A stretch of 64,000 bases of DNA from the IMG/VR virus record IMGVR_UViG_3300032224_000723, positions 1 through 64,000 of that record; one strand, written 5' to 3'. The position numbers and the translations under genes are program-made. Of the stretch, positions 42,659 through 59,722 are shown piece after piece. The notes beneath the pieces are model-generated. The model saw only the letters and a list, made by a program, of their open reading frames with translations. It made no database searches and was not told the origin of the DNA. Position 1 is the stretch's first letter. Every line of letters starts with the position of its first letter. The DNA comes from a virus.

Positions 42659-44935
42659 ATGCTTCAAACAAATCCAGAAATTAACACAATCATTGAAACA
42701 GCTACAGAATGTGCTGCCACTAAGAATCACGAATATGTGACTCTTGAACACTTGTTGTTGGCCATGGTCAACCATCCACCATTTAAACATATTATTGAAC
42801 AATTTGGTGCAGATGCCAGTGGCTTGATTGAAGACTTAGAATCTTATTTAGATCTTCAGACATATTTGATTAGCCAGGGCTATGATATTGTGCCTAAGAA
42901 AACACACAGTTTAGAACGTGTGTTTAATCGTGCATTTACACAAGTACTGTTTAGTGGACGCCAACACATGCAGGTCATTGACTTGTTCCTCAGTATTATG
43001 AGTGAGGAAAAAAGTCATGCAAGATACTATCTTGTCAAATACGGTTTGGAGAGAAAGAAACTTGTTGACTTTTGGAACTCAAATTACACTGAACAAAAAG
43101 AAAAGAAAAAGTCCAAAACTAATGCAGCTGATACAATTCTGCAAGAGTATTGTGAGAATTTAAATGAACTAGCAGAATCAGGAGAAATTGATCCTGTGAT
43201 CGGACGTGAAAACGAAATTGACGAAATTACACAAGTCCTAGCAAAACGCAATAAAAGCAATGTACTAATGGTAGGCGATCCTGGTGTAGGTAAAACTGCC
43301 ATTGCAGAAGGACTTGCACTGAACATTGTCACAGGAGATGTTCCAGACTATCTTAAAGATCACACTGTTTATAATTTAGACATTGGTAGTTTACTTGCTG
43401 GTAGTAAGTACCGTGGAGAGTTTGAAGAAAAACTCAAAGACGTTATCAAAGCATTGAACATCAAAGGCAAGGCTATTTTGTTTATTGATGAAGCACATCA
43501 AATGCGTGGTGCAGGATCAGGCAGTCAAAGCGGTCCAGACTTTGCTAACATGATTAAGCCTGCATTAACTAAAGGACGCATCAAAGTCATTGCCAGCACT
43601 ACATGGGAAGAATACACACAGAGCTTTGAGAAAGATCGTGCGCTGATGCGCCGCTTTTATAGACTTACTGTTGAAGAACCTACTCCTGAAGTAGCAAAAC
43701 AAATTCTACGTGGACTTAAAGATAACTTTGAAGAATTCCATGGTGGAACCATCACAGAAGAAGCTATTGATGCCGCAGTGGATCTTAGTGTACGCTATCA
43801 AACAGATAAGCGGTTGCCCGACAAAGCAATTGACTTGATTGATACTTCGGCAGCACGACTAAAGATTACTACAACAGACTTCGTTGTACGCAAGAGTCAT
43901 ATTATTGATGCTATCAGTAAATTTACAAAGATTCCAGTTGAGCAATTAGACACAGTTGCAGTTAAGAATCTTGAAAATCTAGAAGGTAACATCAAAGGCA
44001 AACTGTACGGACAAGATTCCGCAGTTACCGATGTATTGGATAAAATTTATGTCAGTAGGGCAGGATTAAAATCATTGAACAAACCTGTGGGTAGTTTCTT
44101 GTTCCTTGGACCTACTGGTACTGGTAAGACTGAGTTAGCAAAATTGCTGGCCGAAAATCTCGGGATGAAACTATTAAGATATGATATGAGTGAATACCAA
44201 GAGCGTCATTCAGTTGCAAAATTGATTGGTGCTCCCCCCGGGTATGTAGGTTACGATGATGGTAACTTGGGTGGTGGTTTATTAATTAGTGATGTAGAAA
44301 AGAATCCAAACTGTGTAATACTGTTTGATGAAGTAGAAAAAGCACACCCAGATGTCAGTAATATTCTTCTCAGTCTTATGGATGAAGGTATTGTTACCAG
44401 TAGCAATGGCAAGAAAGCAGACTGCCGCAATGCAGTTGTTATCTTAACTAGTAATTTGGGTGCCGCTGACAATGAACGCAACAGCATCGGTTTTGGTCGT
44501 AGTTTAGAAAAGTCAGGCGAGGATGATAAAGCTGTTAAAGACTTCTTTAAACCCGAGTTCCGAAACAGACTAGATGCTATTATTAAATTCAACAAATTAG
44601 ATCAAACCAGCATCCGTCGTATTGTTGACAAGTTTATTTTAGACATGAACGATTTGATCAGTGACAAACATATTCAAGTTTTGTTAACTGACAAGGCTGC
44701 TGACTATATTATTAGTCAAGGTTATGATAACAAAATGGGCGCAAGGCCACTGGCACGTAAGATTAACGAGTTGATTAAAGTGCCGTTGAGTAAACGTATC
44801 TTATTTGACAACATCACAAACTGTGTGGTCACAGTGGATTACACAGATAAGATTGAATTTGACGTTAAAGAGAATTTTGCTCTCTACGGCAACACTACTA
44901 TGATTGACGAAAACGGCTATGTTGTTGTGGAGTAA
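42659..44935 (+). CDS. clpA: ATP-dependent Clp protease ATP-binding subunit ClpA
   Basis: Clp N-domain; GDPGVGKT and GPTGTGKT; no ClpB middle domain; SIGF ClpP-docking loop. Confidence 0.93.
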
Positions 44936-47240: not shown

Positions 47241-49952
47241 ATGTTCATTACCGATTTATTTGAAGCAAAAAACACGCCTGTGATAGTAACATATCCAGGA
47301 CGCTTCCAACCCTTTCATCAAGGCCATGCAGGTGTATTTGCTGAACTGCAAAAACTCTTTGGCAAAAATAATGTTTATATCCTAACCAGCAACGATCAAT
47401 CAGGACCTAAGAGTCCTTTTAATTTTGCTGACAAACGTCAACTAATGACGGCTGCGGGTGTTCCTGGAGATCACATTGTACAGACTACTGCAATGTACGC
47501 ACTTCCAGAAGGATTTGACCCACGCAATACTATATTTGTCACAGCAGTGGGCGCACCCGATGCTGATAGACTAAACCCAGACTCAGTACTCAAAAGAGAC
47601 AAAAAAGACAAAGACGGCAATATAATAAAGCCTGCAGGCAGTCCAGGATACTACAAGACTTGGGGTGGTGCGGCTCAAGCAGTCACAGCAGATCAACACG
47701 GATATGTTGTTGTAATTCCTGAAATACACAAAGAAGTTAAAATTAAAGATCGTGTCTACGATGTAAGTCATGGCACAGAATGTCGTAACCTATGGAATAT
47801 GATACGTGGTGATGCTAAAGCCAGGTCAGAATTTTTAAGTCAGTTATATGGTAGACCTGATGCTAAGTTAGGACAAATATTTGACAAGATTCCTGCAGCA
47901 GTAGCAGAAGGTGATCCAGCGACTGCCACAAGAGGAGATCCTCATCCTGAAAATGATTTTTATTTTCCCGTCAAAGATCAATGGCCTGAAAAACTTGGCC
48001 CAATGGGCAAAGTGGCAGAAGATGCACCTCCTGGTGCCAAAGCTGAACGTATGGTCAAGCATATTAAAAAAGGATATGCTCGGGACGGTAAACTAACTGA
48101 CAAAGAAAAATCAATTGCTTTTGCCACAGCATGGAAGGCACACAATGCTGGAAAAGTAGAAGAAACAGATATCAATGCAGTAGTAGACACTAATACAGAT
48201 GCCCGCGGGAAACAAGATACATTAGGACTTAATGTTGGCACAAAAGTGGGCCCAGGTAATGCATCAGTACAACCAATAGCATCAGTTTCCCAAGACTATG
48301 ACCCAACACAAGTAACTGCTGGTGTTAATGCAAATTATGGATTGGATGTGGGCAAGGGCAGTGTCACTGCTGGCGTTACAAGAATGAGGGGCATGCCTAA
48401 CAACCAATTTAATCTACAAGCAAACTATCCAGTGGGCAGTGGCAATTTTAATGCTGGAGTATCTAGCTCCAAAGATCAGCCAAATAATATTAATCTAGGA
48501 TACTCTAATGGTGGATTTAATATTGGTTACAATCAATCTCAAGATGGTAAAAATAAAAATCTAGTAGCCAAATACACAAAGACTTTTGAAGAGTGGAGTC
48601 AAAAGTATAAGAAAAGTATCAACTGTAGTCATCCAAAAGGCTTTAGTCAAAAGGCTCATTGTGCTGGTAAAAAGAAACACAATGAAAGCATTGAAATGGA
48701 AATGACATGCCCTGATTGTGGCATGTGCGAAACACACGGTGATCATTCAAAAAATAAATTAGACGAATTAAAGTGCTGGCCAGGTTATACTAGAGTTCAA
48801 GGTGTACCAGCTGGTGCTCCAGGTAGTTGCAAAAAGAAAAAGAAAACTAACGAAGCAGGATCACCGGCACAACAAGCCGCTATTGCTATTGCAATGAAAA
48901 AAGCTGGCAAGAAACCAAAGCACGTTGACGAAGATGCTGCCGGAGTAGGTGTTGTTGCCACAAATAAGAAAATGGCAAGAGATCCACGTTACTCTACTAG
49001 TATGACAGTAGATGTACATCCAGACACTCCCAAGAAACAACTCAAAGCACTGAAACTTGCTGAAATGAAACCCAGCGACTTTGAAATAAGAAACTTTGAA
49101 AAGCTGGATACTATATTAGCAGAACTATGCCGGCAAGTTATTGCACATCAAAAAAACGATGCCGACTATTGGGGTATGGTGGCTGCTTGTGTTGTTGATC
49201 CCGATGACAACGTAGTACCCGGCATTAATTATTTAGACGATAGCGGCAAGCGTGTTCACGCAGAACGTGCAGCCATTGATTCCTATCGTGAACACTTTGG
49301 CGAAATACCTGAAGGCAGTATCATTGTTACTACACTAAGCCCTTGCTGTCATCCATTGGAAGAACGCTATGGTGAAAGTTGTACTGAACTAATCAACGAC
49401 ACAGACGTACACAAAGTCTATTGTGGATACAAAGATCCTACGCAAGAACAAACAATGAATCGTACATTCCATATAATGCAGACACGTAATGCTAGCATTG
49501 TGGAACTATGTAAATCATTTGCAGATACATTTCTTGGCAAAATAAACGAAGAAACTGAAAACAAACACAGCATTGACGAAGATGAAATGATGGTCATGGT
49601 CCGAGAGTTTTTGCCAGTGGCTATGAAGGATTTAAAGATTAAACGTCTACCACACATTGTGCTACAACCTTATGTAGAAGAACACGATGGACAAGCAACA
49701 TTTGGTAGATTTGTTGATTCTGAAGAACGCATTTATCTGGGCATTGCGGATCGTCATCCTGTGGACATACTACGCACATTAGCACATGAACTAGTACATT
49801 TTAAACAGTACGAAGATGATAAGATGTATCCAGGTGCTGGCCAAACAGGTAGCCCGATTGAAAACGAAGCACACGTTGTAGCAGGCATTATCATGCGTCA
49901 CTTTAATAAAAAGTATCCCATGGCCATTAAGTCCAAACCCCTGGAGTTATAA
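47241..49952 (+). CDS. Mosaic polyprotein: HxGH nucleotidyltransferase, beta-rich module, basic/Cys peptides, deaminase, HExxH metallopeptidase
   Basis: YPGRFQPFHQGH; HAERAAID..LSPCC..C; LAHELVHFKQ..PIENEA; modules joined at xxE linkers; MFITDLFE start. Confidence 0.85.
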   Translation: MFITDLFEAKNTPVIVTYPGRFQPFHQGHAGVFAELQKLFGKNNVYILTSNDQSGPKSPFNFADKRQLMTAAGVPGDHIVQTTAMYALPEGFDPRNTIFVTAVGAPDADRLNPDSVLKRDKKDKDGNIIKPAGSPGYYKTWGGAAQAVTADQHGYVVVIPEIHKEVKIKDRVYDVSHGTECRNLWNMIRGDAKARSEFLSQLYGRPDAKLGQIFDKIPAAVAEGDPATATRGDPHPENDFYFPVKDQWPEKLGPMGKVAEDAPPGAKAERMVKHIKKGYARDGKLTDKEKSIAFATAWKAHNAGKVEETDINAVVDTNTDARGKQDTLGLNVGTKVGPGNASVQPIASVSQDYDPTQVTAGVNANYGLDVGKGSVTAGVTRMRGMPNNQFNLQANYPVGSGNFNAGVSSSKDQPNNINLGYSNGGFNIGYNQSQDGKNKNLVAKYTKTFEEWSQKYKKSINCSHPKGFSQKAHCAGKKKHNESIEMEMTCPDCGMCETHGDHSKNKLDELKCWPGYTRVQGVPAGAPGSCKKKKKTNEAGSPAQQAAIAIAMKKAGKKPKHVDEDAAGVGVVATNKKMARDPRYSTSMTVDVHPDTPKKQLKALKLAEMKPSDFEIRNFEKLDTILAELCRQVIAHQKNDADYWGMVAACVVDPDDNVVPGINYLDDSGKRVHAERAAIDSYREHFGEIPEGSIIVTTLSPCCHPLEERYGESCTELINDTDVHKVYCGYKDPTQEQTMNRTFHIMQTRNASIVELCKSFADTFLGKINEETENKHSIDEDEMMVMVREFLPVAMKDLKIKRLPHIVLQPYVEEHDGQATFGRFVDSEERIYLGIADRHPVDILRTLAHELVHFKQYEDDKMYPGAGQTGSPIENEAHVVAGIIMRHFNKKYPMAIKSKPLEL

Positions 49953-51466
49953 TGCGAGCACATGAGTTTATAACAGAAGCCAAAACAACCCGAGAAGATT
50001 TTGAGGGCATGACCATTGAGATGGTTAAGAATGGTCATGTATTAGTGATCAATGCGCTTGATGATTGGGGCAATAACGTATTGGGTTCTGTTGCTTTTAA
50101 CATTGGCGATGACAATGAACTAGATCCGCAAGACTTAAAAGTTGATGAAAGATATCAAGGTCAAGGTATTGCTAAAATAATGTATGATTATGCAAAAAGC
50201 AAAGGCTACGAGATTCATCGTAGCTATGACCAGACTGATGCAGGCAAGGGTTTTTGGGACAAGCATCGCGGAGAAGATGTTCGTGTTTGGGAAGCCTTTA
50301 ACCGACCTTATAAAGGTAAATGGGAAAAGAGTGAATATAGTGGTAGTGTTGATGTATTAACCAAGTTGCCTGACGGAACACATTTGAGTATTATGTTCAA
50401 TGATGAAGGTGATGGAGAATATCAAGTTGAATTTCATAGAAACAATAGTCAATCAGTTACTGGCGAAGGTGACGCTCAACGAATATTTGCCACAGTATTA
50501 GCAGCCATACAAACATTCATTAAAAAATACAAACCCTGGCGTTTAACATTCTCTGCAAGTAAAGAAATAGACATGGACGCAGATTATGACCAGGCACGAT
50601 TTAATCCAGAAAGTCGTGCTAAGTTATACAACAGAATGGTACAGCGTTATGCAAGAGCATGGGGTTATGAGGATTATGCTGAGGATCATGGCGACCAAAT
50701 CACATATGAACTTACACAATTAAAGCAAGGTGCAGTAAAAGAAGATGTTCGTGTTTGGGAAGGCAAACAAACTGTTACTGAATACAGAGATAGGATGTAT
50801 CAATATCTCAAGAGTATTGTTCCAAATTGGCCAGACTATATTGTAAAAGATTGGTTATATGCCAACTTTGCCAAAGGACCAACACAAACCGCCAACTGGA
50901 GTTTTGAAACTATAGGAAAAGATATTCCTGTTATGTTAAAGGACATGGGACTAAGCGTTAACACCAATTGGCAACTTGTACCTAATATGAAGTTTACGAT
51001 GAACATGTGGGAACCAAAAACTTTAAAACGCCTACAAGCCAGAGCAGGTGGTAATACTAAAAGTGCGGACCCTATGGTACATATACCTGCCAATGATGCC
51101 GAACGTCATGCCACACAGGCTGCACTTGCAAAGCAACAAGGCGGTGTGCGTAATGAGCCTGTTATCTTAATGAAAACTGCACAAGGTTATGAATTGCTTG
51201 AAGGCTGGCATAGAACTATACAACATTTTGCTATGTATCCACAAGGTTATACTGGTCCAGCTTATGTAGCAGTAGCTGGTGCTGTACAAGAAAACTTTGC
51301 CGACGGACGTAATCCACAAGACAAAGGCGATAGCAAACGCTATCATGTACCTACTAAAAGCAGTGTCAGCAACTTACGCAAATTTGCTAAAAGTCACAGT
51401 GGACGTGCGGCACAGTTAGCACATTGGGCCGCAAATATGAAAGCTGGCAGGGCTAAAAAGAAATGA
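49952..51466 (+). CDS. Mosaic polyprotein: GNAT acetyltransferase, unknown domain, ParB/Srx-like domain, basic peptide
   Basis: VDERYQGQGIAK..QTDAGKGFW; EPVIL..YELLEGWHR; MRAHEFITE start. Confidence 0.85.
   Translation: MRAHEFITEAKTTREDFEGMTIEMVKNGHVLVINALDDWGNNVLGSVAFNIGDDNELDPQDLKVDERYQGQGIAKIMYDYAKSKGYEIHRSYDQTDAGKGFWDKHRGEDVRVWEAFNRPYKGKWEKSEYSGSVDVLTKLPDGTHLSIMFNDEGDGEYQVEFHRNNSQSVTGEGDAQRIFATVLAAIQTFIKKYKPWRLTFSASKEIDMDADYDQARFNPESRAKLYNRMVQRYARAWGYEDYAEDHGDQITYELTQLKQGAVKEDVRVWEGKQTVTEYRDRMYQYLKSIVPNWPDYIVKDWLYANFAKGPTQTANWSFETIGKDIPVMLKDMGLSVNTNWQLVPNMKFTMNMWEPKTLKRLQARAGGNTKSADPMVHIPANDAERHATQAALAKQQGGVRNEPVILMKTAQGYELLEGWHRTIQHFAMYPQGYTGPAYVAVAGAVQENFADGRNPQDKGDSKRYHVPTKSSVSNLRKFAKSHSGRAAQLAHWAANMKAGRAKKK
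50272..50762 (+). repeat. 23-bp direct repeat AGAAGATGTTCGTGTTTGGGAAG flanking an in-frame module
   Basis: Identical copies at 50272-50294 and 50740-50762 (EDVRVWE twice). Confidence 0.9.
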
Positions 51467-51999
51467 AACTTGTTGAGTTTAGTCCACTGACTTTGCCGGG
51501 TAGTTTCCATCGCGGATTAGTGTTCAACAAGTTATGGCTAATACACGAATTAGAAAAAATACAAAATAGTTTTAGTACAATCTACATACTGGGATCATGG
51601 TATGGAAACATGAGTATTTTACTGGCACGAAGTTCCATTGAATTTGACCATATAGTCAACGTAGACACTGATAAACAAGCAATGGTTACTGGGCAACGGA
51701 TAGCTCAACACATGGGCATTGATGATAAAATTGAGCCAATGGTCAAAGATGCTAATGCGTTAGACTATAGACAATTAGATTCTGATGGATTGGTAATAAA
51801 TTGTAGTTGCCATGACATGACCAATCAAGGCTGGTTTGATAATATTCCCCAGGGAGTTATGGTAGCATTACAAAGTAGAGACGATGTCAATGACGATTTA
51901 ACTGATTACGCATTGAGTCAAACACTGTTTGAAGGCACCAAGCAATTACGTGATCCAGAAACAGAATATACTAGCATATTAAAAATAGGTATAAAATGA
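51463..51999 (+). CDS. Class I SAM-dependent methyltransferase
   Basis: IYILGSWYG, VNVDTD, KDAN, VINCSC. Confidence 0.8.
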   Translation: MKLVEFSPLTLPGSFHRGLVFNKLWLIHELEKIQNSFSTIYILGSWYGNMSILLARSSIEFDHIVNVDTDKQAMVTGQRIAQHMGIDDKIEPMVKDANALDYRQLDSDGLVINCSCHDMTNQGWFDNIPQGVMVALQSRDDVNDDLTDYALSQTLFEGTKQLRDPETEYTSILKIGIK

Positions 52000-52298
52000 A
52001 CGAAGTAAAAATTACAGCAGATATCTACTGCGATCACAATTTTAGACCACTTGAGTTTGCTACAGATGGGGAAAAGTCCTATAGAGTATATGTAAACGAC
52101 GACTTAATAACAGAACGCACATATATTTGGCATAATAACGAATACTTTGTGCGGGAAAACATTGTAGTTAGGTTACCTGCAGGCGAACACAAATTTAAAG
52201 TAGTACCGGCGTATCCATTCTTTAATGTATTTTTCTTTAAAAACTTTACAGTAAATGATCAGTTACAACTTTATGATGGCCAATTCCATATAGACTAA
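51996..52298 (+). CDS. Hypothetical protein
   Basis: YRVYVNDDLITERTY. Confidence 0.7.
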   Translation: MNEVKITADIYCDHNFRPLEFATDGEKSYRVYVNDDLITERTYIWHNNEYFVRENIVVRLPAGEHKFKVVPAYPFFNVFFFKNFTVNDQLQLYDGQFHID

Positions 52299-52324
52299 TA
52301 AATATAACATATTGAGGATTTCAC

Positions 52325-53317
52325 ATGAAAAGCTACGATTTTTTAACTGAAGGCATTGTCGAAGACGCACACGAAATGCACCAGGATCACGAAGTACAAA
52401 TGGCACGTAAGGACTGCTACCAAGCCGCAGAAAATGCTATTGCACTACACAAACTACTGCGTCACGTCAGTGAAAATCAAGGCATTGAGGGATGGGTAGC
52501 TGCTAAAATTACATTGGCCAGCGACTACTTGAACACAGTGCGTGAATACTTGGAATACGAACTAATGAATCAGCACAGCGAGCCAATGGCCGGTGCTCCT
52601 GTTAGTGTTGAGTTTCCTATTGCCGAAAGTCGTCAGATAGACGAAAGCAAAATGAAGGATCTAGACTTAGATTTAAAAAAGCCTCCAGTGGGCATGACAG
52701 ATCAAGCGTTTAAGAAAAAATACAACATGACCAAAGCAGAAGCTAATTCTAAGTTTTCTGCTAAAAAAGAAGTTGAAGAAGGCGTCATTGGTAAAAAGAA
52801 GCCTAAAGCAGATAGTTACCACATTGTTGGCAAAGATGGCAAGCCAGTAAACCTAGCTAGTTATAATGACCGTGCAAGTGCTGAAAAGGATCGTGACGAA
52901 AAACATCCTGGTGCTAAAGTACAACAAGTTGGCGCAAGAGGTAAAGTTAAAGGTGTTACAGAAAATGTTGATGCCAATACAATTTGGAATCAATATGGTC
53001 ATTACTCTAAGGATGACTTAATGCAGGAATTCCCACAATTAAGTCCTAAAGATGCACAGACTATTGTTAACTTTGCTGAATATGGTTGGACAAATATGCC
53101 TAACCGTCAAGAGTATAGAGATGAAGTAATAAAGAGAGTACTACATGCTATGAGCGGACGACAAGGTGTTTCAGAAATGAGCGCAGGTAGTGTTGCTACT
53201 GTGGTCAATCCTACACCTAAGAACAAAGCAAAAGTAGGTACACTGTTTGGTGGCACTTATCAAAGAGAAGAAGCAGATACTCCTTCTAAAAAAAGAATGT
53301 TTAATAAAAAGGCCTAA
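52325..53317 (+). CDS. Mosaic head-associated polyprotein
   Basis: MKSYDFLTE start; DHEVQMAR..EGWVAAKITLASDYL; xxE-delimited modules. Confidence 0.75.
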   Translation: MKSYDFLTEGIVEDAHEMHQDHEVQMARKDCYQAAENAIALHKLLRHVSENQGIEGWVAAKITLASDYLNTVREYLEYELMNQHSEPMAGAPVSVEFPIAESRQIDESKMKDLDLDLKKPPVGMTDQAFKKKYNMTKAEANSKFSAKKEVEEGVIGKKKPKADSYHIVGKDGKPVNLASYNDRASAEKDRDEKHPGAKVQQVGARGKVKGVTENVDANTIWNQYGHYSKDDLMQEFPQLSPKDAQTIVNFAEYGWTNMPNRQEYRDEVIKRVLHAMSGRQGVSEMSAGSVATVVNPTPKNKAKVGTLFGGTYQREEADTPSKKRMFNKKA

Positions 53318-53320
53318 GCT

Positions 53321-54790
53321 ATGAGCGACCTACGCCAACTAATTGCAAAAATGGACCAAATCGAATCGGGTTCATTGCCAAAGAAGAAAAAAACTATTAA
53401 AGAAGATGCTGCTATTCCTGTGTCATCGGGCGGCGATATTATTGGTGGTATAAAATCACTGGGGCCTAAAGTAGCTAAAAAAGTTGTCCCTGCATTGGGT
53501 TTCGTTGATGCTGGAATGAGAGCACACGAAGGTGATTACACTGGTGCGGCTATAGGCACTTTGGGCGGCATTACTGGCGCAATACCACATCCGATAGCAC
53601 AAGGTATATCATTGAGTGCAGATGCTGTAAATCAATTACGTGACTACGCCAAGGAAAAAGGCGGATGGGGCGAAGTAGCCAAAGAAATTAGTCAGTCAAT
53701 GAAAAGCCATGATGATAATAATTTTCTTCCTGAAAATTTAGAAACATTAGACGAAGAAGGACTACGTAGTTGGTTAGCTAAAAAAGGTATTAGTGCTGCT
53801 GAATATTTAAAAAATTTAGTTAAGCCTGCAGAAAAAGAAATTGCTGATGTAAGTGCTGCCCGCCCAACTGATATTTCTGGAATCGGTTCTGATGTTCCTG
53901 GCACGATAAGAGTTGGTACTCCAGCAAAACCACCCGAAGTTCCTTCAGCAGCCACAACTACAAAATCACTGGATCAACGTGCCCAAGCTGCGAGCGAGAT
54001 AAATGCAAAATTAGATACGTTACCAAAACCTAAAATAAATGCTAAAGATTATCAAGCACAATTAGCAAAACAACAAGAACTAGAAAAACAATTAAAAGAT
54101 CCAAGACCCGCAGTATGGAAAGATCCAAGAAATCCTGAATTGCCAGCGTCAAAATCTCCCCCAGCGGCAAATGTGGAACCTCCACAACCATTGAATGGTA
54201 AATCATTTAAAGATGCTTCAGCAGAAGTTAATAAAACCACCGGGCCTAAAGTAAATAGAGATGAGTTAGGAAGACCGTTGGACAATCAAGGTCGAAACAC
54301 CACAACCTTAGGTGGTGAGCCTATTACCTATGATGCAGCCGGTAATCCTAGCATTGGCACTACGCCTAAATCTAATTTTAATAGACCAAGTTCAGCTAGA
54401 GGTGACACAGAAATGGGTCCTGAAATAGATCCTAATGCACCACCTGAATGGTTTCAACAATGGCAGGCAAACCAGCAAGCCCAGCAATTACCCCAACCGC
54501 CGGTAGATGCAGACAAGCCGGGTATATTGAAATCAATTGGCAAAGCAATGTGGAATAATCCAAAAACAACTGCCGCAGTTGCCACTGGGGCAGAGTACGA
54601 AAGAGAAAAAAATGCTAACTGGAAAGGTGCTAAAGCAGCTGGTCAACTTGCACACCCAGATGATGATTTTTGGTCATATCAAAATCAAATAAAAGACTTT
54701 GGTGTTAAACCAGAACTAAAAACTCCTACCAAAGAATCATTACAAAATAAATTGTTTAACGAATTTAAAACATTTGTAGAAAAGAAATAA
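53321..54790 (+). CDS. Low-complexity virion/ejection-type protein with Gly-zipper segment
   Basis: GDYTGAAIGTLGGITGAIP; Pro-rich; ends LFNEFKTFVE. Confidence 0.7.
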   Translation: MSDLRQLIAKMDQIESGSLPKKKKTIKEDAAIPVSSGGDIIGGIKSLGPKVAKKVVPALGFVDAGMRAHEGDYTGAAIGTLGGITGAIPHPIAQGISLSADAVNQLRDYAKEKGGWGEVAKEISQSMKSHDDNNFLPENLETLDEEGLRSWLAKKGISAAEYLKNLVKPAEKEIADVSAARPTDISGIGSDVPGTIRVGTPAKPPEVPSAATTTKSLDQRAQAASEINAKLDTLPKPKINAKDYQAQLAKQQELEKQLKDPRPAVWKDPRNPELPASKSPPAANVEPPQPLNGKSFKDASAEVNKTTGPKVNRDELGRPLDNQGRNTTTLGGEPITYDAAGNPSIGTTPKSNFNRPSSARGDTEMGPEIDPNAPPEWFQQWQANQQAQQLPQPPVDADKPGILKSIGKAMWNNPKTTAAVATGAEYEREKNANWKGAKAAGQLAHPDDDFWSYQNQIKDFGVKPELKTPTKESLQNKLFNEFKTFVEKK

Positions 54791-54791
54791 C

Positions 54792-56873
54792 ATGAGTGAT
54801 ATGCGCCGACTACTAGAAGCCATGGACAGCATGAGTCGTGCTGAGAAGAAACCCACAGGTCCAAAATTTCCAGGTTACTGGAAAGGTACAGATCCTGCCA
54901 GTGCTGCTAAAAATAAAATGGTTGGCGGCTGTGAGCAAGAAAGTGTTATTCCCGAACTAGCAAAAACAGCAAAGAAGAAATCTACAGAATGGGAATTAGA
55001 AGAAGCATTCAAACAATTTAAAGAAGGCGAATTTAGACGAGACGTTATCCCCCAACAACAAGCACCAGTGAATACTAAATTAGATCCAGGATATGGAAAG
55101 CCTTTAGATAGACTTCCTGATCCTCAAGGAGATCAAAGCGGCGGATTTAAGAAAGTACTGCCCGGTGAAAAATTTGATAAAGACCAATGGTCTCTGCCAG
55201 GTAAACCTAGCGGTACTCCTAATTTGCCAGTTAGTCCTGATGTCAATACCCCATTATATACACCGCCGTATGCAGGTGATCCAGGTCTGGGAGTAAAAGT
55301 TCCCACTGATAGATTTGATGTCATTGGTGATGGGCCCACCTATGCACAAGGAATCAGACCTCCTTATCAAGCCAGATATAAACCTGGCAAAGAACCTGTA
55401 GAATTAAAAACAACAGAACCGCCAGTTTCAGTAGCTGGTCCAGAGCAAGAAAAATTTGATGTTAAGACTAATTCAATTAAAGTTAATCCAGCAACTGGTA
55501 ATGTTACTAAACAAGATAAACCTGAATTTGCTGGTCCCACAGATACATTTATCAAAGATAAGAATGGCAAGTGGGTAGAGAATCCAAAATACTCAAAGCC
55601 TAATACAGATATTAGTCCAGAAGAAAATGCTGAAATTGATCAACAAATAAAACAACAGCAACAAGTACAGCAACCACCGGAAGTTAAACCTGCCCCAGAA
55701 GTTAAATCAGTATCCACTACTGGTTCAGATACACTAAGAACTAATATAAACAAAGCCAGTAGCGGAAGTGACAACTCTGCCGTTAAAACTGGAACCTCTT
55801 CTCCCACACAAACTGAGCCAGAACCTCGACCAGGTAGCTGGCAAGAACTTGCAAAACTGAATAATATCACTGATCCTACTAAATTACGTGCAGGACAAAC
55901 AATTAGATTGCCGGACGACAGTAATTATACCATAAGTCCAAATGATACACTTAGTGGCATTGCTCACTCCTTGCGTACTACTGGTCAGCCACCAGGACAA
56001 CTAAAAAGCCAAAAAACTACGCAAGCTGATCGAGATCAAACTCCACCGTCCGATGGGACAGCAAAATCTGTAACTACTACACCAGTATATGTGGGTGGTA
56101 AGGCTAAAAGAAAAGCAGCGACTATTACAACACCAGAGATTAATTATTCACGAGACCCTGATGTCATGTCTGATCCAACTGCACCAGAAACTAAAGGATA
56201 TCAACGTAGTCCAGAACAAAAAGCCGCAGATGCGGCTGCACTAGCCGCGGCAGAACGAGCAGAAAGAGCACGACAAAAACTAAGATCGAACTTGCCGCAA
56301 TCAAAAAACAAACCAAAACCTCAAATCGCTGTTCCTGAATCATTCAGTCAACGACTAGCCAAAGACTTCGAACAGTTTTTAGAATCAGACGAGCCTTATT
56401 CGGGTTACGATCAAGATGTTAAAAAATTAAAACAACGTGCCAAGTTAGGCCCGATGAAAACTGTATGGGATGAGAAAACACAGAGATATCGTGTAGTACC
56501 AGTTAAGCCACAGGAAAAACAAATTAAAGAATATGGTAATGCACAAGACGCTAACCAACAAGCTACTAATGCCAACCAACAACAAACATCGCAAACAGGT
56601 GACCAAAAAGCCATAGACCAACAAGTAGACATTGCCACTGCTAAGTCAACAATGTCTGGCTTAAAAAATGTTCTTGGTCCACAACTTAATACCAATGCTG
56701 CTGCCAGTGGTGTTGTAAAAATGAATGACGGGAAACCTTTATCAGTACCAGAACGTGAAGCGATAAGTACACTAACACCATTGGTATCAAAAGCAGCAGA
56801 AAATCCTGCTACCGCCAGTGCATTAAAGTCAGCGTTAAGTACAGCAGGTATGTTGGCCAAGCAAGGAAAATAA
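54792..56873 (+). CDS. Low-complexity virion protein with LysM-like domain
   Basis: MSDMRRLLE start; LAKLNNITDPTKLRAGQTIRLP..YTISPNDTLSGIA. Confidence 0.75.
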   Translation: MSDMRRLLEAMDSMSRAEKKPTGPKFPGYWKGTDPASAAKNKMVGGCEQESVIPELAKTAKKKSTEWELEEAFKQFKEGEFRRDVIPQQQAPVNTKLDPGYGKPLDRLPDPQGDQSGGFKKVLPGEKFDKDQWSLPGKPSGTPNLPVSPDVNTPLYTPPYAGDPGLGVKVPTDRFDVIGDGPTYAQGIRPPYQARYKPGKEPVELKTTEPPVSVAGPEQEKFDVKTNSIKVNPATGNVTKQDKPEFAGPTDTFIKDKNGKWVENPKYSKPNTDISPEENAEIDQQIKQQQQVQQPPEVKPAPEVKSVSTTGSDTLRTNINKASSGSDNSAVKTGTSSPTQTEPEPRPGSWQELAKLNNITDPTKLRAGQTIRLPDDSNYTISPNDTLSGIAHSLRTTGQPPGQLKSQKTTQADRDQTPPSDGTAKSVTTTPVYVGGKAKRKAATITTPEINYSRDPDVMSDPTAPETKGYQRSPEQKAADAAALAAAERAERARQKLRSNLPQSKNKPKPQIAVPESFSQRLAKDFEQFLESDEPYSGYDQDVKKLKQRAKLGPMKTVWDEKTQRYRVVPVKPQEKQIKEYGNAQDANQQATNANQQQTSQTGDQKAIDQQVDIATAKSTMSGLKNVLGPQLNTNAAASGVVKMNDGKPLSVPEREAISTLTPLVSKAAENPATASALKSALSTAGMLAKQGK

Positions 56874-56874
56874 A

Positions 56875-59262
56875 ATGAATTTACATAGTTTGTTTGAAAA
56901 TGTAGCAGAAGAAAAATGTCCGCATTGCAATGGGCCAATGTTCAGTGAACTAATGATCAATGAAAAGAAAGATGCTTGCTACTACAAAGTCAAGAGTCGT
57001 TATAAAGTATGGCCCAGTGCTTATGCCAGTGGTGCATTAGTTAAGTGTCGCAAAAAAGGCGCAGACAGTTGGGGCAATAAATCGGAAAGCGTGGCGGAAG
57101 CCACAGGTGATGAGAAGTTTGATACCATGATGGGCAGGATACAGCAAGAACCAAAGTATCCTGATTCACAAATGCCTCCAACAGATGTAAAAGATCTGTA
57201 TCAATGGGCAGTCAAAAACAACAAGCCGTATCATAAAATTTTTGCTGAATGGGCCATGAGAGAGGGTTACAAGTCTGTTGCCCCGGCATTACAGAAAGCG
57301 GGTAATTTAGATAGTGACGCTTTAGATTATTGGACTCCACGTGTTTGGAAAATATATTGGGGCGAAGTCCGGGGTATTGATTCAGAAATGCCCCCAGAAT
57401 GGGCCAAAAAACGTATACCTGCGGAATTGAGATATTATCTTGATGATGTGTTTGATGCTTATGATCGTATAGTGTTTGATTGGCCCACAGAATATCGTCA
57501 GATTGGTCAGCAAGGCATGGCGGAAGGTTTAGATAAACCTGAAGAAAAATCTATGTATGATTATCGTGGTGTTCCTGGTTTAGATAAACCTGAAGAAAAA
57601 TCTATGTATGATTATCGTGGTGTTCCTGGTTTAGATAAACCTGAAGAAAAATCTATGTATGATTATCGTGGTGTTCCTGGTTTAGACGAAGGCATGAAAG
57701 CCGATGAGCTTTCACGCTACTGTGAAGAACTTGTGGCAGAAAAAGGCTGGGATGCCGCATACAAACATGCTAGATTTATGGCACAAGGTGCTACAGATCC
57801 TGCCTGGGGCAGTGTATTAAAATATCTTCATGCCATGAAAGACGGAGTATCAGAAGATCAACTAGACGAAAATTTACGTCAGTGGTTCAAAGAAAAATGG
57901 GTACGATTTGGTCCAGACGGAAAGATTCGCGGAGACTGTGCCAGAGGAGATGACAGCGAAGGTAAGCCAAAATGTTTGCCTCAAGCCAAAGCACACGCAC
58001 TGGGTAAAAAAGGTCGTGCCAGTGCTGCCGCAAGAAAACGCAGAGAAGATCCCAATCCTGAACGCCGCGGCCCTGCACACAATGTTGCTACAAAATCTGA
58101 AAGCTCGTTAAACGAATTTGCGCCAGGCAGTGATGACGGCAACGATGGATTCAGTGATGAAATACTAAAGCGTTTAGCCGCACAATGGTGGCAAGGTGAC
58201 GAAGATCCAAGAGTAGAACGCACACTAGCGGCCGCTGGTTGGGAAATTGGGCAAGACGAAGGCTATGACAACGGTGGTGTATTTGTTGTAATGTCCGGTG
58301 ATGAGCATGGCCGCAGTTACATGAGCTGGCCCGCAGAAGAGTTGGAAGGCTTGTCGGAAGGCTACTACAATGACATAGGTCCGGAATACGGTGGTGCTGG
58401 CAAGGGTCGTTCCGAAGATGCAATGATGACTACCAAACTTACTAGACAAGCAAAAGCTGCCGCCAAAAAAGCTGGCAAAACATTTAATACCAGTGCTGAA
58501 TATCGTTTGTGGCATAGGAAACAAAAAGAAAAACAAGGTGTGTCGGAAGCACAAACTGATTATCAAAAGCGCCGTCAACGTGAACGTGATGTAGATGCAG
58601 GTAAGCCAGTTAAACGTCAACCAAAGAATCCACAGAATGATTATTTTGCACGTCGTAAAAAAGAACGAGACTTAGCAGAAGACCAAGCTGTACAACTATC
58701 ACCTAATATATCAGCAAGACCAAATCAAGATCCTGACTCGCCCGAAGACTATGACTACTTTTATAAAGACATGCAGGTAATGCCCGGGCAAGATTTTCAC
58801 ACACAGATAAAAGATCAACATCTACGTCAAATGGATCCTGCATATAATACTATGCGAACAGCATTTGATAACCCTATTAAGCCAGGACCGACTACAACTT
58901 ACAAAGAACCTAAGGGCGACACAATAATCCCAGTGCGTCCGCAAGAGCCAGAAAAAATGAAGGACATAGAAGGCAATCCTGTTAGACTAAGAGATTATGT
59001 TCCCGGTGATCCAAGGATATCAGAGTCTCGCTTATACTATAATGTCATAGGCACAGCAGATAAAGAACTACGTTCAGCCTTTGGTATGAGAAAAGATAAA
59101 AACGGTTGGTTCTTAAAAGAATCCAGCAGTACAAAATATAAAATGATGGCGCAACGTGCATTTGGTAGTCCTAAGTTGCAGGAATATAATTTTCCTGCAG
59201 GGCAAGCTACTAAAGGCAGTGAAGGTGTAATCAGTCCTGTTGGCTCTATCCCACGTAATTAA
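56875..59262 (+). CDS. Mosaic polyprotein of about 10 small modules joined by G(V/M/L)(A/S)E-type linkers
   Basis: MNLHSLFE start; WPSAYASGALVKCRK and LRQWFKEKWV..KCLP basic modules. Confidence 0.8.
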   Translation: MNLHSLFENVAEEKCPHCNGPMFSELMINEKKDACYYKVKSRYKVWPSAYASGALVKCRKKGADSWGNKSESVAEATGDEKFDTMMGRIQQEPKYPDSQMPPTDVKDLYQWAVKNNKPYHKIFAEWAMREGYKSVAPALQKAGNLDSDALDYWTPRVWKIYWGEVRGIDSEMPPEWAKKRIPAELRYYLDDVFDAYDRIVFDWPTEYRQIGQQGMAEGLDKPEEKSMYDYRGVPGLDKPEEKSMYDYRGVPGLDKPEEKSMYDYRGVPGLDEGMKADELSRYCEELVAEKGWDAAYKHARFMAQGATDPAWGSVLKYLHAMKDGVSEDQLDENLRQWFKEKWVRFGPDGKIRGDCARGDDSEGKPKCLPQAKAHALGKKGRASAAARKRREDPNPERRGPAHNVATKSESSLNEFAPGSDDGNDGFSDEILKRLAAQWWQGDEDPRVERTLAAAGWEIGQDEGYDNGGVFVVMSGDEHGRSYMSWPAEELEGLSEGYYNDIGPEYGGAGKGRSEDAMMTTKLTRQAKAAAKKAGKTFNTSAEYRLWHRKQKEKQGVSEAQTDYQKRRQRERDVDAGKPVKRQPKNPQNDYFARRKKERDLAEDQAVQLSPNISARPNQDPDSPEDYDYFYKDMQVMPGQDFHTQIKDQHLRQMDPAYNTMRTAFDNPIKPGPTTTYKEPKGDTIIPVRPQEPEKMKDIEGNPVRLRDYVPGDPRISESRLYYNVIGTADKELRSAFGMRKDKNGWFLKESSSTKYKMMAQRAFGSPKLQEYNFPAGQATKGSEGVISPVGSIPRN
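57526..57686 (+). repeat. Perfect 3 x 51-bp in-frame tandem repeat (GLDKPEEKSMYDYRGVP)
   Basis: Units at 57526, 57577 and 57628 plus partial fourth. Confidence 0.97.
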
Positions 59263-59287: not shown

Positions 59288-59722
59288 ATGGATGAACTCA
59301 TTAAAGCAATGAAAATTGCATTTGCAACAGAATATGGCTTTGCTGTAAAAGCACAGTTTTGCCATTGGAATGTAATAGGACCAGAGTTCCCACAATACCA
59401 TGCATTGTTTGACACTATCTACACAGAAGTATATGGCAGCATTGATCCATTTGCTGAAAATATTCGTAAGTTAGGTAGTTATACTCCAGGTAGCTTCCAA
59501 CGTTTAAGTATGTTAAGTCAAATCGACGAAGACCTTGAAGTTCCCCCTGCTATGACTTTAGTCGCTGGTTTATTAGAAGACAGCGAAAAATGTAGTAGAC
59601 TATTTAAAATGGTTTATGATCTAGCAGAGCGCGAAGGCAAACATGGCCTAAGCAACTTCCTAGCAGAACGCATGGATGCACATGACAAGCACTCTTGGAT
59701 GCTTAGATCAACTTTAAAATAA
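59288..59722 (+). CDS. dps: Dps / DNA-binding ferritin-like protein
   Basis: HWNVIGPEFPQYHALFD..IDPFAENIRKLG..HDKHSWML. Confidence 0.93.
   Translation: MDELIKAMKIAFATEYGFAVKAQFCHWNVIGPEFPQYHALFDTIYTEVYGSIDPFAENIRKLGSYTPGSFQRLSMLSQIDEDLEVPPAMTLVAGLLEDSEKCSRLFKMVYDLAEREGKHGLSNFLAERMDAHDKHSWMLRSTLK

Follow-up and report, generated by a model that had tools for sequence, protein, structure and literature searches.

The question raised by this locus is why the junctions between the modules of one viral gene share nucleotides beyond what their varying residues need. We addressed it in a window of 64 kb, which corresponds to the first 64 kb of the 156,993-bp IMG/VR viral contig IMGVR_UViG_3300032224_000723 and contains the open reading frame (ORF) 56875-59262, here called ORF 56875. 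The original prediction had described four copies of a short motif at junctions in this gene, and had proposed that cassettes, each bringing a Glu cleavage site, are inserted or swapped there in frame by an integron-like mechanism. In-frame exchange at the motif is supported; the integron-like mechanism is not. With moderate confidence, we propose that ORF 56875 encodes a cargo polyprotein, in which the linker would act both as a gp21-type cut site and as a microhomology for in-frame module exchange by general recombination.

The contig (G000; the other G labels denote genomes of relatives, and L labels denote related loci) has a GC content of 38.6% and a CheckV completeness estimate of 45%. 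Its nearest polymerases are those of Sinorhizobium phage Phosso, Agrobacterium phage Atu_ph07 and Rak2-like jumbo phages, and the phage is best explained as an uncultured jumbo phage of the T4 superfamily with a genome of roughly 340-370 kb. A megablast search against cultured phages gave no match. The main relatives used for comparison were G008 (338.5 kb, 97% complete, DNA polymerase 86% identical to the window's at the amino acid level), G009 (374 kb, polymerase 78% identical to the window's) and G007 (99% complete).

Four in-frame copies of a short motif

The degenerate pattern AARGYDTGKCGGAAG had exactly four matches in the window, at 57086, 57512, 58346 and 58535, all on the + strand and all in frame in ORF 56875, at the positions that had been predicted. 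None was expected from 100 shuffles, a test that is partly circular since the pattern was derived from the same four sites. The Glu residues of the four junctions are residues 75, 217, 495 and 558. The encoded peptides vary as described (Table 1), while NTG-NCG-GAA-G is kept at all of them.

The GCG and TCG codons of the motif, judged uncommon by eye in the original prediction, were confirmed to be so. In 168 long ORFs of the 157-kb contig, which served as codon-usage background, GCG makes up 7.3% of Ala codons, TCG 4.0% of Ser codons, GTG 16% of Val codons and TTG 23% of Leu codons. ORF 56875 itself is no exception away from the junctions (GCG 5/65, TCG 3/43, GTG 4/33). When all [VMLI][AS]E[AGS] peptides of the contig were listed, an NCG codon was present in 4 out of 26, precisely the four junctions. 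Likewise, 4 of the 6 copies of the core TGKCGGAAG found in 157 kb lie within ORF 56875. The motif is not accounted for by genome usage; on a naive estimate, made post hoc, four NCG codons would occur with a probability of about 8.5e-6.

Compared to the family consensus described below, the window copies show 3-5 differences over 18 positions. TCG differs from GCG by one G>T change, ATG and TTG differ from GTG by one first-base change, and AGC differs from GGC by one change. The simplest explanation for residues that vary while NTG-NCG-GAA-G is kept is that the four sites descend from a single ancestral word and are drifting away from it.

The linker is fixed at silent positions in related phages

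The consensus of the family is xAR CAA GGT GTG GCG GAA GGC, a unit of 18-20 nt that reads Q-G-V-A-E/G (the slash marks the putative cut site). It was present in 49 independent junction contexts with mutually unrelated flanks, and in these 49 junctions the unit stays in register, with no indels and no partial duplications. Conservation is limited to about 20 nt and is without dyad symmetry. In 78 related IMG/VR loci, 59 copies of the core motif were on the coding strand and 7 on the opposite one, nearly all copies being in frame in long ORFs.

Codons were tallied at 79 distinct peptide-defined G[VMLI][AS]E sites of these 78 loci, with the same ORFs as background. The linker Ala was encoded by GCG in 50 out of 68 cases (74-77% overall), compared to 9.5% in the background, and the linker Val by GTG in 48 out of 61, compared to 29%. 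For the Gly located four residues before the cut, GGT was used in 73% of cases against 42%, and for the Gly directly after the cut, GGC was used in 76% against 33%. Thus conservation extends at the DNA level beyond what the peptide needs, in agreement with the original prediction.

A scan of IMG/VR for the exact 18-mer returned at least 120 stretches, on contigs of up to 374 kb; copy counts rest on 80 loci among the matches listed. In these loci, 100 of 101 copies were in frame. Moreover, GTG-GCG was found at 73 of 105 further G-V-A-E sites of the same 80 loci, which were not chosen by DNA search. All five relatives scanned contained an exact or nearly exact 18-mer, with 2-6 copies each within two mismatches (four linker copies in G007) on a single strand per genome.

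Homology starts and stops inside the linker

The original prediction implied that the breakpoints of module exchange fall in the motif, and this is what was observed. The internal ends of nucleotide high-scoring segment pairs (HSPs) lay within 12 bp of the motif in 221 out of 1432 cases, compared to 10.9 expected (199 loci), about 20 times chance. When canonical junctions were compared in pairs, 11 pairs had one flank 70-94% identical in nucleotides and the other random, and 1 had both flanks homologous. In the alignments of those pairs, identity starts or stops inside the motif. L008 and L009, which are 97-98% identical, display a cassette replacement: one 54-aa module of L008 is replaced by two unrelated modules in L009, and on either side of the exchanged cassette the point where identity is lost or regained lies within the linker. 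L059 and L063, the only other indel pair with 90-98% identity examined, differ by a C-terminal extension in a more distant lineage, with no linker at its borders.

Modules have been exchanged at each of the four window junctions. In related contigs, at least 15 other neighbours are found downstream of module 1, and in related loci at least five others are found upstream of module 2, each of the latter joined via the linker; within module 2, silent sites vary freely while the linker is fixed. The left flank of junction 2 is 91% identical in nucleotides to L002 up to the motif and unrelated beyond it, and is followed by five different downstream modules in relatives. At junction 3, at least nine different modules come after the left flank, and the right-flank module is found in L001 after another module, to which it is joined by the canonical QGVAE/G. 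Finally, the right-flank module of junction 4 has three different predecessors (in L001, L007 and L187), via QGMAE or QGVAE.

Exchange was also followed between positional orthologues. Synteny in G008 and G009 is as in the window, with the neighbouring genes, the polyprotein gene, Dps and the polymerase, and the orthologues of the polyprotein gene have at most one module in common with the window gene. They do not keep its module order, which answers the orthologue check suggested in the original prediction. The G008 orthologue consists of seven to eight modules of 33-142 aa, mostly joined by GGT GTG GCG GAA GGC. Window modules are shared with G007 at 83% and with G001 at 78% nucleotide identity, and the polymerase genes of these two genomes are 70-71% identical to the window's; no window module is detectable at the DNA level in G008, whose polymerase gene is 79% identical. 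By these alignments, module sharing does not track core phylogeny, and the pattern suggests that cassettes move horizontally between lineages.

The persistence of the linker is informative given the rate of silent change. When the polymerase was compared among six clade genomes, identical residues shared their codon with a frequency of 0.49, chance being about 0.40; the silent sites of this gene are close to saturation. Codon agreement in the linker is 0.62 between junctions with unrelated flanks. As the 18-mer persists while polymerase silent sites are nearly saturated, vertical descent with neutral decay is inadequate. The pattern fits continual copying and exchange of the linker (concerted spread) rather than strong purifying selection on each nucleotide.

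Module architecture of ORF 56875

More than 4000 database proteins match ORF 56875, each of them covering 8-44% of its length at 60-93% identity. The fusion partners of these homologues differ, and include ParB-like, LysM, chitinase-like, nucleotidyltransferase and methyltransferase domains. BLAST alignments preferentially begin and end at the four motif sites and near residues 328, 411 and 715. Since these borders cluster at few positions, the protein is a string of approximately 8-9 modules, and the motif sites are real module junctions, as had been supposed. No Pfam family was found above cut-off in ORF 56875, either whole or module by module, and its PHROGs matches are to families of unknown function only. 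A stand-alone search with module 2 was uninformative, returning 13 small proteins on contigs of 0.7-3.5 kb that are probably truncated polyproteins. The features of the gene are collected in Table 1.

Table 1. Features of the polyprotein gene and of the genes upstream of it (positions in the window; the slash marks the putative cut site).
Feature	Position	Strand	Basis
Run of genes with CTS-like leaders (47241, 49952, 52325, 53321, 54792)	47241..56873	+	Syntenic with G008
Mosaic polyprotein gene, about 8-9 small modules, 795 aa	56875..59262	+	ORF list, homologue coverage, HSP border peaks
N-terminal leader, 12 aa (..LFE and ..VAE), T4 capsid-targeting-like	56875..56910	+	Sequence reading
Degenerate fifth linker copy between leader and module 1, GTA GCA GAA (V-A-E)	56902..56910	+	Codons
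Junction 1 linker, GAA AGC GTG GCG GAA GCC (ESVAE/A), between modules 1 and 2	57085..57102	+	Motif match, in frame
Junction 2 linker, CAA GGC ATG GCG GAA GGT (QGMAE/G)	57511..57528	+	Motif match, in frame
Perfect tandem repeat, 51 bp x 3.2 (17-aa unit), copies 100% identical	57526..57686	+	Repeat analysis
Probable degenerate junction, G-V-S-E (GGA GTA TCA GAA)	57844..57855	+	HSP ends peak at 328, starts at 326-329
Probable module border, K-S-E/S-S-L-N-E/F, non-canonical Glu linkers	58093..58119	+	25 HSP ends at 411, starts at 408-412
Junction 3 linker, GAA GGC TTG TCG GAA GGC (EGLSE/G)	58345..58362	+	Motif match, in frame
Junction 4 linker, CAA GGT GTG TCG GAA GCA (QGVSE/A)	58534..58551	+	Motif match, in frame
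I-S-E opening the last module	59017..59025	+	HSP starts peak at residue 715

Relatives help to read the less regular borders. The canonical GTG GCG GAA linker precedes, in L011 and L023, the same Zn-ribbon-like module that follows the leader in the window. S/Q/K-L-N-E comes after many canonical linkers in relatives. The last module is the only one common to the window gene and the G008 orthologue, where it is preceded by ..SISE/S. The 51-bp tandem repeat begins exactly at the residue after the cut site of junction 2, and is a recent in-frame amplification of a mini-module adjoining the linker.

Module 1 (residues ~3-90) is the sole module with protein matches in cultured phages, namely T4-like cyanophages, and is weakly DUF5872-like. 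Its counterpart in Synechococcus phage S-P4 (MH920639.1; L081 2047-3636) is annotated as a structural protein, T4-GC0119. This protein is a chain of small basic Cys-containing modules akin to window modules 1 and 5, and the spacers between them end in Glu. Given this protein of related modules, cleavage could be studied in cultured T4-like cyanophages.

Leaders, head protease and neighbouring genes

That each cassette brings a Glu cleavage site was part of the original prediction. Such cleavage at the linker is plausible, because relatives of the phage carry a T4 gp21-type protease. Indeed, Peptidase_S77 (gp21-type prohead protease) was found in G001, G006, G008 and G009, all of which carry the linker. 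G001 also encodes gp22 and gp23, and the N-terminus of its capsid protein contains L-L-E/G twice. Peptidase_S77 had no match in the 99%-complete G007, which might have a divergent protease or one of a different kind. The T4 enzyme, gp21, cleaves after the Glu of L/I-x-E (PMC9026906). The window linkers read V/M/L-A/S-E followed by G or A.

In T4, leaders of 10 residues target internal proteins to the capsid (PMC9026906). Leaders ending in hydrophobic-x-Glu head ORFs 47241, 49952, 52325, 54792 and 56875 of the window, with endings in the neighbours such as ..DLFE/A, ..FITE/A, ..FLTE/G and ..RLLE/A; they resemble the T4 capsid-targeting sequence (CTS) by pattern only. Cleavage at the linker, together with packaging into the capsid, would thus be well motivated.

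The genes with such leaders form a run upstream of Dps and the DNA polymerase, in which ORF 54792 contains a LysM domain. In the same run, an exact 23-bp direct repeat in ORF 49952-51466 (50272-50294 and 50740-50762, 468 bp apart) brackets an in-frame segment. A homologue of ClpA/ClpB-like AAA+ ATP-dependent proteases (758 aa, 42659-44935; phrog_4871, E 6e-245) is encoded just upstream of the polyprotein block. The Dps/ferritin-like gene at 59288-59722 (PF00210, E 2e-18) lies directly downstream of ORF 56875, a position conserved in G008 and G009. Outside the window, the contig contains an ORF of 4465 aa on the minus strand (G000:C1:129500-142897, L203).

A model for linker-based module exchange

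We propose that the linker works at two levels. As a peptide, it would be a hydrophobic-x-Glu cut site for a gp21-type prohead protease: the N-terminal leader would bring the polyprotein into the capsid, and the modules would then be released inside. As DNA, it would provide about 18-20 nt of in-register homology, identical even at silent positions, which would cause the exchanges rather than only mark them. The recombination and replication machinery of the phage may exchange, insert or delete modules in frame at the linker, both between paralogous genes and between co-infecting relatives. In support of this, G006-G009, among them all three complete relatives, gave a match to the RecA/UvsX family; searches for RecA and GIY-YIG in G000 (45% complete) gave no match. 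Each new junction would copy its linker from an old one, and cassettes would travel between lineages. With the linker copied at every new junction and the cassettes on the move, the consensus could spread faster than it decays. Junctions that no longer exchange would drift from it, and the four window sites would be such drifted copies.

Several observations weigh against this model. The L008/L009 replacement is the only cassette swap found between near-identical contigs. In addition, one insertion in L008 is bordered by V-E-E/G and M-E-E/G and not by canonical linkers, which shows that the consensus is not strictly required for exchange. Where two junctions have a homologous flank in common, codon agreement is no better in the linker (0.74) than in the flank (0.70), and direct purifying selection at the nucleotide level is thus not established. 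The window copies have at most 9-10 contiguous identical bases in common with one another, and may be relics rather than active sites. A length of 18-20 bp is also short for exchange of the RecA/UvsX type. Finally, the protease of the window's own phage is presumed from its relatives: neither gp21 nor gp23 was found in the 45%-complete contig of 157 kb, which is without a head module.

Alternative explanations

Could the linker DNA have no role at all? Illegitimate recombination could occur anywhere, with selection retaining the in-frame, cleavable joins, and the identity of the linkers would then reflect young age and common origin. The flank-sharing pairs described above are in line with this possibility. 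Module turnover is clearly fast, and decayed linkers (the four window sites, V-E-E, M-S-E) still stand at module borders. However, random joins would not keep 18-20 nt in register at 49 independent junctions, and identity in L008/L009 would not be expected to end and resume inside the motif on both sides. Moreover, the persistence of the 18-mer despite nearly saturated polymerase silent sites needs continual copying or exchange of the linker. We consider it unlikely, on balance, that the DNA is without a role.

The opposite extension of our model is, in our opinion, equally improbable. The linker would be a dual-coded, actively maintained 18-nt word, both a capsid-protease site and a dedicated in-frame recombination signal, favoured by selection because injected cargo modules could re-assort rapidly through it, and a nuclease or annealing protein not yet recognised might read it. 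The linker would thus form a clade-wide intragenic counterpart of the integron. As to signals of another kind, a Chi-like role was considered and found unlikely, each genome having only 2-6 copies, every one of them within a reading frame.

The silent sites might also be fixed by a role in the mRNA or in translation, through a pause at GCG, a Shine-Dalgarno (SD)-like stretch or a weak two-tetrad G-quadruplex (GG-TGT-GG-C-GG-AA-GG), recombination being a by-product. In line with this, the motif is bound to the reading frame and to the coding strand, and GCG is the rarest Ala codon. Rarity is nevertheless limited to one codon out of six, as GGT, GAA and CAA are the commonest synonyms; the contig has no tRNA for GCG or GTG, its sole tRNA being Arg-TCT. 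Pairing with the anti-SD was evaluated at -5.7 kcal/mol, weaker than the shuffle mean of -7.4, and no start codon follows the motif. As to the quadruplex, the two most fixed silent bases (third positions of Val and Ala) create two of its four GG runs, and a folding model that permits G-quadruplexes places one on the consensus. Its predicted gain is only about 2 kcal/mol. In addition, two fixed silent bases lie outside it: the T in third position of the Gly four residues before the cut (88% against 42% in the background) and the C in third position of the Gly after the cut (60-76% against 33%). Silent bases fixed outside the G runs fit identity as such. An mRNA function thus seems to us a quite unlikely reason for the conservation.

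In the integron- or shufflon-like mechanism of the original prediction, a dedicated recombinase would read the motif as a core site and excise or insert cassettes. A motif that is conserved, directional and on a single strand within a genome, with breakpoints mapping inside it and clean, in-frame cassette replacement, is what such a system would produce. The candidate recombinase was searched for in G000 and in six relatives, among which three have a completeness of at least 97%. PF00589 (Phage_integrase, tyrosine recombinase) had no match in these genomes, although all 14 control genomes matched, and the same was true of serine recombinases (Resolvase), for which control genomes also matched. 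No GIY-YIG was found in G000 either, and the complete relatives have RecA/UvsX. The junctions do not resemble attC: when 91-nt stretches around the four junctions were folded on both strands, z-scores ranged from -0.9 to +0.65 compared to shuffles, and flanks are unconserved past about 20 nt. The motif is moreover confined to reading frames, and a non-canonical linker also served as insertion border in L008. Site-specific recombination is thus very unlikely, and "integron-like" is true of the outcome only.

Finally, chance, general codon usage or chimeric metagenome assembly can be dismissed with near certainty: the 15-nt pattern was indeed taken from the four sites themselves, but neither genome-wide nor local codon usage accounts for it, it is replicated in hundreds of independent contigs, the shared stretch is below usual assembly k-mers, and the same junctions recur across samples (e.g. 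L012-L015 and L032/L033).

Comparison with known systems

The ingredients of the model are known: polyvalent proteins, CTS-directed packaging with gp21 processing, and motif-mediated shuffling. In the literature searched, we found no description of one in-frame word that is both a probable cut site and an exchange point with fixed silent positions, and a search on the linker peptide gave no phage paper among the best-ranked matches. Proteins that a phage delivers along with its DNA act in the front line against host defences, and their fast diversification is poorly understood. The locus offers a concrete and testable design, in which unrelated modules share one frame and one short word probably enables their release by the head protease; an exchange at this word always lands in frame. 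It also provides a practical annotation rule, since huge "hypothetical" proteins can be split into functional units at the linker, and it points to a natural design that could be followed in building modular cargo for phage capsids.

Integrons share with the window system an array of variable cassettes between conserved flanks, in one orientation. They differ from it by their IntI-type recombinase and folded attC-like sites, which were not found here. Moreover, integron cassettes are mostly promoterless separate genes, whereas the window units are in-frame modules of one ORF.

The polyvalent proteins of phages and conjugative elements (Iyer et al. 2017, PMC5512222) resemble ORF 56875 by their many unrelated domains per polypeptide and their extensive mosaicism. 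For these proteins, delivery alongside the DNA and cutting into units have been put forward, release being ascribed to embedded zincin-like peptidase domains; the passages of that article covered here describe no conserved junction peptide, DNA-level motif or exchange at junctions. Neither the zincin-like MPTase nor other polyvalent hallmark domains were found above the Pfam cut-off in ORF 56875 or its modules.

The internal proteins IPI-III and Alt of T4 (PMC9026906) may also be comparable, as variable and fast-evolving cargo with short N-terminal leaders ending in hydrophobic-x-Glu and a protease of the gp21 family, which was found in relatives. However, they are single proteins with one cut site (two in Alt), whereas the window gene encodes many modules with repeated putative internal sites.

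Swapping of adhesins and tail fibres in T-even phages involves the glycine-rich motifs of gp38 (PMC3157838) and the His boxes of Tetart et al. 1998 (as cited in PMC3157838). There also, short conserved coding motifs separate variable segments, and recombination in or near them results in in-frame chimeras. Those motifs belong to the structure of one fold and serve to swap the specificity loops of one protein, whereas the linker is a spacer between unrelated, apparently autonomous modules. We found no report of fixed silent positions for the gp38 or His-box motifs.

The PeSL cassettes of T4-type phages (Arbiol et al. 2010, PMC2839356; Comeau et al. 2014, PMC4122927) offer further parallels. There too, variable units of T4-superfamily genomes lie between short conserved sequences, crossovers leading to insertion, deletion or replacement between relatives fall in the conserved element, and the general phage recombination machinery is used without a dedicated integrase. 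The authors themselves liken this arrangement to integrons. PeSLs are intergenic, consist of a promoter and a stem-loop conserved over about 100 bp and move whole ORFs; the linker is intragenic, 18-20 nt long and frame-keeping, and encodes a probable protease site. Mini-circles were demonstrated by inverse PCR for PeSLs, whereas the evidence on the linker comes from sequence comparison.

Altogether, the homology-driven modular shuffling of T4-type phages (PeSL, gp38 and tail fibres) is the best-fitting analogy for the linker system, rather than site-specific cassette capture. Indeed, the window gene and its relatives display the same three traits: a conserved sequence flanking the variable units, crossovers within this element and, in the complete relatives, a general recombinase without a dedicated one.

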